From a virus (Duplodnaviria; Heunggongvirae; Uroviricota; Caudoviricetes), in the IMG/VR virus record IMGVR_UViG_2690316131_000006: a stretch of 14,375 bases of DNA. One strand, given 5' to 3'. Each line of letters begins with the position of its first letter. Positions within the stretch are counted from its first letter, which is position 1. The notes under the pieces are model-generated. The model made no database searches, was not told the origin of the DNA, and saw nothing but the letters and a program-made list of their open reading frames with translations. Made by a program: the position numbers and the translations under genes. Below, piece after piece: positions 6,983 to 13,373 of this stretch.

Positions 6983-7087
6983 ATGTCGGATGATATTTCA
7001 CTGGCAATGGAAGGTGCTCTGGCTGTTATTGCTGTTGTGGGCGTTTACTGCCTGGTTGTGTTTTTGATGGATCGACTAGGGAACTGA
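6983..7087 (+). CDS. Small hydrophobic peptide, 34 aa (MSDDISLAMEGALAVIAVVGVYCLVVFLMDRLGN), predicted membrane
   Basis: AGGAGG 4 nt upstream of ATG; one transmembrane-like segment. Not in the ORF track. Confidence 0.45.
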   Translation: MSDDISLAMEGALAVIAVVGVYCLVVFLMDRLGN

Positions 7088-7219
7088 ATTCATTACGATA
7101 TGGGAATTCCCATATCGGGTAAAAACGGTTTGCGGTAAAGCGAGAGTTAAGTAGAATTGCTGCGGGTGCTTGAGGCTGTCTGCCTCGGGCATGCCACCGT
7201 AAGGCAGACAGAGAAAAGC

Positions 7220-7285
7220 CCCAGTTAACATTACGCGTCCTGCAAGACGCCTAACATTAATCTGAGGCCAATTTCATGCTAGACA
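7220..7285 (-). ncRNA. sok: Sok-like antisense RNA of the hok locus (approximate position)
   Basis: Minus-strand promoter-like TTGCCT-17 nt-TAACCT at about 7291..7319 pointing leftward into the hok leader; inferred from hok/sok architecture, ends not determined. Confidence 0.3.
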
Positions 7286-7332
7286 TATGTAGGTTAGCCT
7301 CTTACGCGCCGAAAGGCAAGGAGAAGCAGGCT

Positions 7333-7488
7333 ATGAAGCAGCAAAAGGCGATGTTAATCGCCCTGATCGTCATCTGTATCACCGTCATAGTGACGGCACT
7401 GGTAACGAGGAAAGACCTCTGCGAGGTACGAATCCGAACCGGCCAGACGGAGGTCGCTGTCTTCACAGCTTACGAACCTGAGGAGTAA
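7333..7488 (+). CDS. hok: Hok/Gef-family type I toxin, 51 aa
   Basis: MKQQKAMLIALIVICITVIVTALVTRKDLCEVRIRTGQTEVAVFTAYEPEE: transmembrane helix plus conserved C-terminal motif; AAGGAG Shine-Dalgarno; in-frame upstream ATG at 7276 could be a mok-like start; 3' stem-loops and terminator downstream. Confidence 0.9.
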   Translation: MKQQKAMLIALIVICITVIVTALVTRKDLCEVRIRTGQTEVAVFTAYEPEE

Positions 7489-7557
7489 GAGACCCGGCGA
7501 GGGAGAAATCCCTCGCCACCTCTGATGAATCAGGCATCCTCAACGCACCCGCACTTA

Positions 7558-7583
7558 ACCCGCTTCGGCGGGTTTTGTTTTTT
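7558..7583 (+). terminator. Intrinsic terminator of the hok transcript
   Basis: ACCCGC-ttcg-GCGGGT hairpin followed by TTTGTTTTTT. Confidence 0.7.
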
Positions 7584-7935: not shown

Positions 7936-8985
7936 GTGCGGGTATTACTTCGACCTGTTCTGGTACCGGAACTCGGTCTGGTTATCGTTAAGCCAGGCCG
8001 TGAATCAATGTCAGCATTCCATAACGGCAGAATACTGGTGGAGCCGGAACCAAAAAGCATGCGAGCTCTGCCGTCCGGGGTTGTACCTGCCGTTCACCAG
8101 CCGCTGGCGGAAGATAAATCACTACTGCCATTTTTCAGCGATGAGCGGGTGAGCCGTGCTGCGGGTGGCGCTGGTGCACTGTCTGACTGGTTATTACGTC
8201 ACGTGAAATCCTGCCAGTGGCTACACGGTGATTATCATCACAGCGAAACCGTCATTCACCGTTACGGTACCGGCGCAATGGTGTTGTGCTGGCACTGCGA
8301 CAACCAGCTGCGTGACCAGACATCCGAATCACTCGAGCAACTTGCTCATCAAAACCTGTCAGCATGGATGATTGACGTCATCGGTCACGCAATAAGCGGT
8401 ACGCAGGAGCGTGAATTATCTCTGGCTGAATTATCCTGGTGGGCGGTCCGCAATCAGGTGGCGGACGCGCTACCGGAAGCGGTATTACGTCGTTCGCTGG
8501 GGTTGCGTGCGGAAAAAATCCGCTCCATGTACCGTGAAAGCGACATCGTACCGGGAGAGCAGACCGCCACCAGCATACTGAAACAGCGCACAAAAAATCT
8601 TGCGCCGCTGCCTCACGCCCACCAGCAACAGAACCCACCACAGGAAAAGACGGTGGTCAGCATTGCCGTTGATCCTGAGTCTCCGGAATCTTTCATGAAA
8701 CGACCTAAACGTCGCCGCTGGGTTAACGAGAAATACACTCGCTGGGTGAAGACACAGCCGTGTGCGTGTTGTGGTAAGCCAGCCGACGATCCCCATCACC
8801 TGATTGGTCATGGTCAGGGCGGAATGGGGACAAAATCTCACGATATTTTCACGCTACCGCTGTGTCGGGAGCATCACAACGAGCTTCATGCGGATCCGCT
8901 GGCGTTCGAAGAAAAGCATGGTTCTCAGGTTGATTTAATTTTTCGTTTTCTTGATCACGCCTTTGCAACTGGCGTGCTTGGGTAA
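7936..8985 (+). CDS. DUF968/YdfU-like protein with C-terminal HNH-like zinc-binding motif
   Basis: GTG start 5 nt after GGAGG; C-terminus ...QPCACCGKPADDPHHLIGHGQG...LPLCREHHNELH has Cys pairs with His-His as in HNH nucleases. Confidence 0.65.
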   Translation: MRVLLRPVLVPELGLVIVKPGRESMSAFHNGRILVEPEPKSMRALPSGVVPAVHQPLAEDKSLLPFFSDERVSRAAGGAGALSDWLLRHVKSCQWLHGDYHHSETVIHRYGTGAMVLCWHCDNQLRDQTSESLEQLAHQNLSAWMIDVIGHAISGTQERELSLAELSWWAVRNQVADALPEAVLRRSLGLRAEKIRSMYRESDIVPGEQTATSILKQRTKNLAPLPHAHQQQNPPQEKTVVSIAVDPESPESFMKRPKRRRWVNEKYTRWVKTQPCACCGKPADDPHHLIGHGQGGMGTKSHDIFTLPLCREHHNELHADPLAFEEKHGSQVDLIFRFLDHAFATGVLG

Positions 8986-10614: not shown

Positions 10615-10626
10615 AGGTTTTTTTTA
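10602..10626 (+). terminator. Intrinsic terminator
   Basis: CCTTC-cgcagt-GAAGG hairpin followed by nine T. Confidence 0.5.
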
Positions 10627-10765
10627 TTTGTGGTAATGGGCGGCTGGTGGGTGTTAGCGGCACCTGCCAGCCATCTGCTCATGCGTTGGGGTCACAAGCA
10701 AACCTCAGGCCCATCTGCTTTGCGCAAAAGCAGAACGAGCCTATCAGAGAAGTGCTTACTGATCT

Positions 10766-12941: not shown

Positions 12942-13373
12942 ATGTTTGGTATTTTCAAAAAGAAAACCCGCAGAGCAGCAACTGAAATTAAAAAGTTTGA
13001 GAAACGCGATCTGGCACAGGCGGTTATTAATGCTGCCTACCTGGTGGCCTATGCAGATGGTGAATGTGAGACTTCAGAGAAAGCGAAGATCGAACAGGTA
13101 TTACGTAACCAGCCAGCATTGTCCGCATTTACGTCAGAAATTAATGCCATCAGTGCCACGATCACAGGTCAGCTTGACACCAATTTTAAAATTGGTCGTC
13201 GTGCAGCGTTGCGTGAAATTGAAGATGTGAAACACGATACGCGTGAAGCGGAAGACGTGCTGGATGTGGCGGTGGCCATTGCTGAAGCAGATGGTGAAAT
13301 TGAGCCGGAAGAGCGTAAGGTTCTGGAAGAGATTGCTGGTGTTCTTGGCCTGCGACTGGAGAACCACCTGTGA
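12942..13373 (+). CDS. TerB-family (tellurite-resistance TerB-like) protein, 143 aa
   Basis: Two acidic ADGE motifs (AYADGECETSEKAKIEQ and AEADGEIEPEERKVLEEI) typical of TerB; AAAAGGAAAAG upstream of ATG. Confidence 0.75.
   Translation: MFGIFKKKTRRAATEIKKFEKRDLAQAVINAAYLVAYADGECETSEKAKIEQVLRNQPALSAFTSEINAISATITGQLDTNFKIGRRAALREIEDVKHDTREAEDVLDVAVAIAEADGEIEPEERKVLEEIAGVLGLRLENHL

Follow-up and report, generated by a model that had tools for sequence, protein, structure and literature searches.

BstA, a widespread defence protein of prophages, acts by abortive infection and stops phage DNA from replicating, lambda and phi80 being among the phages blocked. It is countered by anti-BstA (aba), a DNA-based element that lies within the bstA locus, matches its own BstA allele, acts in cis or on high-copy DNA, and protects whichever replicon bears it (Owen et al. 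2021, PMC8585504). The element of BTP1, aba(BTP1), comprises 63 bp at the 5' end of the gene, carries terminal CCCGCC direct repeats and is non-palindromic; by the authors' account, the DNA ligand of BstA and the determinants of phage sensitivity are open questions (PMC8585504). The subject of the present analysis is a perfect 22-bp palindrome in a 14,375-nt stretch of viral DNA (hereafter the window), which covers the region from immunity to Q in an EHEC-type lambdoid prophage. The palindrome resembles aba in being also intragenic in BstA-family genes, conserved at the DNA level and variable among alleles, with stand-alone copies on other phages. Unlike aba, it is 22 bp long, lies ~170 nt into the gene within the KilA-N domain, and is also present in genes lacking BstA_C. 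Identity with the published element is ruled out, because aba(BTP1) is non-palindromic and lies at the gene start, differing from the 22-mer in both sequence and position, and because the BTP1 bstA gene, when checked, contained no palindrome of 10 bp or more and no copy of the 22-mer.

Three other described systems are close enough for comparison. Among the APSES/KilA-N operators, the MCB box ACGCGT is bound by Mbp1 and PCG2; the domain fold is the same and both kinds of site are palindromic, whereas the putative site considered here is embedded in the coding sequence of the domain itself. The cyanobacterial SDR and the Rickettsia palindromic elements are short hairpin units, intergenic or in frame within ORFs, and form families of many copies with a single-lineage range. 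Our motif shares with them the occurrence both between genes and in ORFs, the compensatory changes and the three open frames, but it is present in 1-4 copies per E. coli genome, is identical across phyla and has a "home" in one gene family. Finally, the palindrome is located directly upstream of a canonical hok/mok/sok unit (as in R1 and in hokW/sokW of 933W) in 628 E. coli genomes, yet it falls outside the mRNA and the promoter and is found at many loci without hok. The literature searched contained no description of a bacterial or phage KilA-N site of this kind, and full-text searches on the sequence, on KilA-N palindromes and on later BstA work returned no description of the 22-mer itself. 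The comparative picture presented below was unexpected and, as far as the literature searched extends, is unpublished.

The palindrome and its position relative to hok/sok

The sequence CGATATGGGAATTCCCATATCG is fully self-complementary around a GAATTC centre and is the longest perfect palindrome of the window (Table 1). An earlier note on this DNA had described it as a perfect 22-bp palindrome located between small-peptide genes and the hok locus, and both points agree with the sequence at 7096-7117 and with its neighbors (the 34-codon ORF at 6983-7087 and mok at 7276-7488). The expected number of perfect palindromes of at least 22 bp in 14.4 kb at the window's composition is 0.003, and 11 pairs were reached in one of 300 mononucleotide shuffles; at that expectation a chance origin is ruled out. 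No second copy was found in the window when up to three mismatches were tolerated. The RefSeq annotation has no feature at the palindrome and labels the 105-nt CDS at 6983-7087 a hypothetical protein. As the dyad is centred on GAATTC, an origin from a sequencing linker or from assembly was also considered; it is ruled out, since 628 complete E. coli genomes, as well as unrelated phage records, contain the palindrome. The runner-up palindrome of the window, ACCAATTTTAAAATTGGT (18 bp, 13179-13196), is located in the lysis-gene region.

When single-stranded, the palindrome forms a hairpin (9-bp stem, 4-nt loop) with a folding energy of -14.5 kcal/mol for RNA and -8.6 for DNA, and the RNA folds of the two strands reach -14.5 and -13.9 kcal/mol with z-scores of -4.5 and -3.3. 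Neither strand has a T-run after the palindrome and a terminator scan made no call there, which rules out an intrinsic terminator and agrees with the note's view that it was not an obvious one. In an Rfam scan the palindrome matched no RNA family, the only match being the downstream sok/hok leader (RF01794, 7164-7338, 114 bits).

Table 1. Features of the window discussed in the text
Feature	Position	Strand	Basis or remark
cI-like repressor	1884-2657	minus	
O-like replication initiator gene	3295-3846		with iterons
cro-like, cII-like, DnaC-like loader and Ren-like genes			present in window
DUF551 protein	6223-6867		
ORF1, 27-codon hydrophobic small ORF (MIWPEAF...CRWG)	6864-6947	+	ORF list
Direct repeat copy 1, GGGTAAAAACG, with imperfect continuation TTCGCCGG	6942-6952	+	read from sequence
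ORF2, 34-codon hydrophobic small ORF (MSDDISLAMEGALAVIAVVGVYCLVVFLMDRLGN)	6983-7087	+	ORF list
Decayed BstA-like coding remnant	7084-7095	minus	tblastn; BLAST extension
Perfect 22-bp palindrome, orphan copy of the KilA-N-gene palindrome	7096-7117	.	presence, uniqueness, non-randomness, covariation of in-gene copies
Direct repeat copy 2, GGGTAAAAACG	7117-7127	+	first base is the palindrome's last
hok cassette left end and inferred hok promoter	7121-7163	+	invariant alignment block
hok/mok mRNA leader, sok antisense region, mok (7276-7488), hok (7333-7488)	7164-7488	+	Rfam RF01794, 114 bits; ORF list; 933W mokW/hokW/sokW annotation
DUF968/YdfU protein	7936-8985		
RusA and Q-like antiterminator			present in window

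By homology to the R1 hok mRNA, and from the Rfam match that begins at 7164, we take the hok promoter to consist of a -35 element TTGCGG at 7130-7135 and a -10 element TAGAAT at 7152-7157, with the mRNA starting near 7165; a simple promoter scan did not call this promoter. Given that start, the palindrome would span approximately -69 to -48, with its centre ~58.5 nt upstream of the inferred mRNA start and its end 12 nt before the inferred -35. A location within the hok mRNA or the sok RNA (tac, fbi or sok-target elements) is ruled out, as the palindrome ends at 7117, ahead of the -35 at 7130 and of the Rfam match, which begins at 7164.

Comparison with other hok loci located the edge of the cassette. 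In the palindrome-free cassettes of 933W (hokW) and vB_EcoS-689R5, homology to the window begins at ~7120-7121 (TAAAAACGG...), 3-4 nt past the palindrome, and in the palindrome's stead a small ORF runs up to the cassette with its stop codon; in 933W this is a homologue of the 27-codon ORF1, which ends directly on the cassette (..TGGAGATAAAAACGG). The PPompW prophages have the module 7078-7120 in common with the window, including the stop codon of ORF2, but differ in the upstream gene (paa/adfO). Scanning viral contigs with a hok-promoter pattern blind to the palindrome yielded 105 hok loci, of which 26 carry the palindrome 28 nt upstream of the pattern; a 1-nt left-arm deletion affects 7 of these 26, and some hok-linked copies have a changed centre. 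A wider pooled tabulation of hok loci added a few carriers with the palindrome at 46 nt from the pattern. Because homology starts 3-4 nt after the palindrome and only 26 of the 105 loci carry it, the palindrome, judged from these alignments, marks the left junction of the cassette yet stands outside hok/sok. The proposal in the earlier note that it might be a boundary of the hok/sok cassette, to be checked against hok-containing and hok-free relatives, is thus sustained as regards position, since the palindrome adjoins the cassette edge where homology breaks off, but not as regards membership. Approximately 75% of homologous cassettes lack it, those of 933W and 689R5 among them, and its reading as an element of the hok cassette is ruled out.

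Of 5426 complete E. coli genomes, 628 contain the 61-bp stretch around the palindrome; its 1078 occurrences are all chromosomal, with 1-4 copies of this hok-linked query per genome. Identity across the 61 bp reaches at least 99% in almost every copy, which indicates recent clonal spread.

On its other side, the palindrome adjoins the residue of a gene. Read on the minus strand from 7116 to 7084, the window encodes DMGIPIS(stop)(stop)IQ, to be compared with DMGIPISELIQ in an E. coli protein of KilA-N+BstA_C architecture (tblastn), and in BLAST the KilA-N genes of two phages, 666R9 and vB_BPM-V3, align over 7085-7120. The window holds no KilA-N gene; its remnant amounts to 12 nt of coding flank with two stops, and the 22-mer is the sole intact piece of the short BstA-like fragment. 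Sister hok loci retain longer remnants, with up to ~12 further codons (SE(stop)IQFTWRG in PPompW; SPDMGIPISGLTQPVK in the L110/L171 type). From these minus-strand coding remnants it follows that the hok-linked copies descend from a BstA-like gene fragment lying antisense to hok. Trimming has left ~3-4 nt of it between palindrome and hok and ~12-30 nt beyond the opposite edge. Additionally, the two GGGTAAAAACG repeats bracket ORF2, the remnant and the palindrome, and since 933W-type loci have a single copy of the repeat and lack the bracketed segment, the latter looks like an insertion or a product of inter-repeat recombination. Together, these comparisons show the palindrome, at the level of sequence, to be the junction of a BstA-like gene scrap and the hok cassette. 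The window copy retains flanking coding sequence of the kind left by derivation from a KilA-N gene, and its interpretation as an orphan copy of a dyad whose home is KilA-N coding sequence is well supported.

The motif within KilA-N genes and its conservation as DNA

A sensitive search with the 61-mer returned matches inside a 257-aa "DNA-binding / KilA-N" gene of E. coli phages and a Proteus phage, together with an intergenic match in the virulent Dhillonvirus McMelon. The exact 22-mer is far more widespread, being present in at least 120 viral contigs with at least 25 unrelated flank contexts and in at least 80 species-representative genomes with a locus GC content of 27-70%. These genomes belong to Nostocales and other cyanobacteria, Bacteroidota (Saprospiraceae/Aureispira), Bacillota, Alpha-, Beta- and Gammaproteobacteria, Dehalococcoidia, spirochaetes, Verrucomicrobiota, Planctomycetota and Saccharibacteria. 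Among the matches listed, ~46 of 80 copies occupy one fixed position of the KilA-N domain (Pfam PF04383), between "..EL(S/E)x" and "..KGG..QGTWVHP"; BstA_C (PF26567) follows in 19 of these ~46 genes, and ~27 have other C-termini, including ANT/KilAC. The 22-mer is free of stops in all three frames. Its usual in-gene reading is DMGIPIS, and KilA-N genes of Saprospiraceae/Aureispira read the identical 22-mer at the same position as RYGNSHI (L194, L202, L204, L217, L219, L242, L247 and L267), in proteins with a non-BstA C-terminal domain.

The window 22-mer is a dyad of the form N6-GGGAATTCCC-N6, equals the commonest in-gene variant, and is identical at 22 of 22 positions to the copy in the E. 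coli KilA-N+BstA_C gene (L004), as well as to copies from dozens of taxa. Copies in genes of this type lie within the coding sequence, the window copy having the 12-nt remnant and no gene. In the palindrome-bearing E. coli protein, of KilA-N+BstA_C architecture, the match to the PADLOC BstA model is confined to the C-terminal half (E = 3e-21). In an AlphaFold model (pLDDT 90), the residues DMGIPIS close helix 47-60, form a turn and continue through a short helix towards the beta-hairpin 68-71/80-83. The modelled N-domain is similar in structure to the APSES DNA-binding domains of Mbp1 and PCG2, and the PCG2 structure was solved with DNA. The BstA-like allele is found in 137 of 5426 complete E. 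coli genomes, as against 628 with the hok-linked orphan; given these counts and the lack of a KilA-N gene in the window, any effect of the window copy would concern encounters with other hosts. On one viral contig (L007), an intact KilA-N+BstA_C gene (4231-4989, centre AATC) and a hok-linked orphan (10624-10645, centre AATT) occur together, 5.8 kb apart.

We then asked how the codons of the motif are used. A coding scan, in which every coding of D-M-G-I-P-I-S(TCN) was counted by distinct context, gave 29 contexts with the centre AATT, 25 with GATT/AATC and one with GATC, alternatives being rare. In motif-blind homologues, gathered through conserved peptides elsewhere in the protein, the flanking synonymous codons vary (GAA/GAG, TTA/CTT/CTA, TCA/TCT/TCG/TCC, AGC/CGC and others), and the motif itself is fixed for GAT, GGA/GGG, ATT/ATC, CCC, ATA (a rare codon) and TCG. 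Palindrome arms differ among alleles through compensatory changes, and distant homologues carry other perfect palindromes, namely CGAAACGGGAATTCCCGTTTCG (ETGIPVS), CGATACCGGAATTCCGGTATCG (DTGIPVS), CGATGCGGGAATTCCCGCATCG (DAGIPAS) and GTCCATGGGAATTCCCATGGAC (SMGIPMD); a minority have no palindrome. Across 120 protein homologues, the residues around G-I-P pair as the dyad requires (M-I, T-V, V-T and A-A on the inner positions; D-S, E-S, S-D, V-T and A-A on the outer ones). In a 25-sequence alignment of such motif-blind homologues, 91% of cells were paired and 8 of the 11 pairs showed changes on both sides. None of 500 shuffles attained the observed pairing, the covariation score or the tally of doubly changed pairs; with slid controls on the same alignment, pairing was 26-49%.

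These data show, at the sequence level, that the KilA-N palindrome family is selected as DNA. A purely protein-level constraint on DMGIPIS is ruled out by the frozen synonymous sites, the alternative frame in Saprospiraceae, the covarying arms and the non-coding copies. The G-U wobble bias, which bears on RNA versus DNA, offered few informative variants. The self-complementary AATT centre, kept beyond what coding needs, points to a symmetric duplex site more than to an RNA loop, and a dimeric protein-binding site, one of the possibilities raised in the earlier note, is the reading that the comparative data favour.

Copies outside KilA-N genes

Outside KilA-N genes, the motif is found as bare units of ~22 bp in phage and mobile DNA. 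Some are in frame, in the inter-domain linkers of a PrimPol-DUF3987 primase-helicase, an AAA_24 protein and a Rha-family protein, the AAA_24 copy being kept in two diverged homologues; one lies ahead of a terminase, and others occur in the gap that separates a stop codon from a ribosome-binding site. Non-coding arrays whose adjacent units differ in their arms were found in L214 (five units in 180 bp; 2528-2704), L268 (five; 1486-1842), L008 (5711-6067) with L029 and L083, L255 (4455-4496) and L197 (2933-3086), and no KilA-N coding remnant was seen around them. The array units are centred on GGAATTCC with arms such as TGAAACGGGAATTCCCGTTTCA, CGTTGCAGGAATTCCCGCAACG, CGATATCGGAATTCCGATATCG and AAAAACGGGAATTCCCGTTTTT, and the same variants occur inside KilA-N genes.

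The virulent Dhillonviruses show the motif as part of a 54-bp presence/absence indel just upstream of the helicase-primase gene, consisting of the palindrome and a second copy of ~33 bp of flank (GGCAACCAATGCGCGCAAAATTTAATCTT..), as seen when L006 (McMelon, 2469-2557), L016 and L276 are compared with L274 and L275. The copy in phage bob is degenerate and mismatched (CGATATGGGAATCCACATATCG). No target duplication is shared among the orphans (~33 bp in the Dhillonviruses, none elsewhere), and no associated transposase or recombinase was seen. A high-copy mobile repeat of the REP, MITE or SDR type is ruled out by the 1-4 copies per E. coli genome.

Two further contexts were recorded. In Xenorhabdus beddingii (L220 at 2051, L235 at 6044), the palindrome sits within a ~200-bp repeat with at least two genome copies, which suggests that it can ride on a larger repeated element. 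Two Alcaligenaceae MAG contigs (L226 and L260) start 22 nt before the palindrome (positions 23-44), which is followed by GCGGGTTCGAG(T/C)CCCGCGGGCGGC, a sequence resembling a tRNA T-arm and acceptor strand; ARAGORN called neither a tRNA nor a tmRNA in this context.

Candidate function and competing explanations

The best explanation overall, which we put forward tentatively, is that the orphan KilA-N-gene palindrome is a KilA-N duplex site acting as an aba-like tag. The 22-mer would be a candidate duplex-DNA recognition site for KilA-N proteins, probably bound by a dimer, and on replicating phage DNA it would serve as a cis/trans tag toward BstA-like abortive-infection proteins, comparable to aba. 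The orphan would then let the lambdoid prophage replicate or be induced in cells with a BstA-like protein of matching specificity. A more far-reaching version, which we regard as unlikely in its full extent, proposes that KilA-N domains encode their own recognition site, that phage-captured 22-bp copies neutralise KilA-N/BstA abortive infection and that the copy in the window serves an EHEC lambdoid prophage in counter-defence. According to this proposal, the putative site would lie within codons of the KilA-N helix-turn-wing region, and site and protein would diversify jointly, giving palindromes with compensatory arm changes. Phages and mobile elements would capture bare copies, singly, in linkers of their own genes or as arm-variant arrays, and the captured copies would function as portable "self" tags or decoys.

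Several observations stand against the mechanism. Constraint in the hok context is not absolute, with left-arm deletions in 7 of 26 loci, and among the Dhillonviruses the copy in bob is mismatched; the palindrome does not match aba(BTP1); the PADLOC match covers the C-terminal half only; and the window is without a KilA-N gene. As the motif is also present in KilA-N genes lacking BstA_C, the link may be to KilA-N in general instead of BstA immunity. Even so qualified, a 22-bp dyad in KilA-N/BstA-like genes from cyanobacteria to E. coli constitutes a concrete candidate ligand for BstA/KilA-N recognition, and the Dhillonviruses supply natural pairs, McMelon and KarlBarth having the orphan copy and SSL-2009a and EK99P-1 lacking it. 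If true, the tag reading would account for self-immunity within the family's KilA-N branch, would define a class of very small anti-defence DNA elements invisible to gene-based annotation, and would imply that phages can hide such elements in frame within their own genes. For the window, it would concern an unannotated feature beside hok in an EHEC prophage that may affect prophage induction and phage competition.

The alternative that survives best is an inert relic, in which a BstA-like gene was destroyed on being joined to hok and the small ORFs, leaving the palindrome as its last recognisable trace, without effect in this prophage and still intact through recency and clonality. We consider this possible, if somewhat unlikely. 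It is consistent with the stop-bearing remnant next to the palindrome, with the near identity (at least 99%) of almost all 1078 E. coli copies, with the 1-nt deletions and centre changes in some hok-linked copies and with the 75% of hok loci that do without the palindrome. The pattern of decay argues otherwise: flanks differ among the window, PPompW, L021/L110 and L096 types whereas the 22-mer is identical, and successive deletions halt at the edges of the 22-mer on both sides. Among nine hok haplotypes, read from the listed sequences, ~2 variable events fall in the 22-mer against ~13 in 44 flanking positions. Moreover, bare 22-bp units recur elsewhere with no gene remnant, which decay alone would not yield.

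A recombination hot spot, whose hairpin or cruciform would drive illegitimate or site-specific recombination, bring the palindrome to module boundaries such as the left edge of the hok cassette and generate the copies as a by-product, is improbable as the explanation in its own right, though compatible with the other readings. The break in homology with 933W-type loci 3-4 nt from the palindrome's end, the ~33-bp flank duplication accompanying the Dhillonvirus copy, the GGGTAAAAACG repeats bracketing the window segment and the location of orphans at gene boundaries and in linkers all point in this direction. Against it, neither a common target duplication nor a recombinase was found among the copies, selection in E. 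coli normally acts against long perfect palindromes, and the fixed in-gene position with compensatory arm changes over long evolutionary distances calls for a selected function beyond mere instability.

The earlier note had also considered an RNA-processing element. Such a hairpin in the early-right-operon transcript, with its 9-bp stem and 4-nt loop acting as a processing, stability or insulation signal before hok, would be stable on either strand and would lie just past the ORF2 stop codon. Hairpin stability was the extent of the support that this suggestion gained, and we judge it very improbable: T-run, terminator call and Rfam match are all absent, most hok loci lack the palindrome, the orphans face either way and occur in non-coding arrays as well as within ORFs, and the loop is kept self-complementary, which an RNA loop does not need. 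Least credible is an operator of the hok promoter, bound ~58 nt upstream by a dimeric host or phage regulator that activates or represses hok; the palindrome does lie 12 nt upstream of the inferred -35 with its centre near -58.5, but two promoter spacings (28 and 46 nt) are found, most hok cassettes lack the site and the 22-mer occurs in dozens of hok-free contexts.

Two other structured regions of the window were observed in passing. Within the O-like gene, 3666-3732 forms an inverted repeat with 33-nt arms of TTGACCC(G/C)TCAA-like units, which is probably the iteron region of the prophage origin. Just past hok, 7497-7578 gives a sub-threshold Rfam match to isrK (27.7 bits, E = 0.0013) that ends in a terminator-like hairpin at 7557-7574 followed by a T-run, and this match may simply represent the 3' fold-back and terminator of the hok mRNA.
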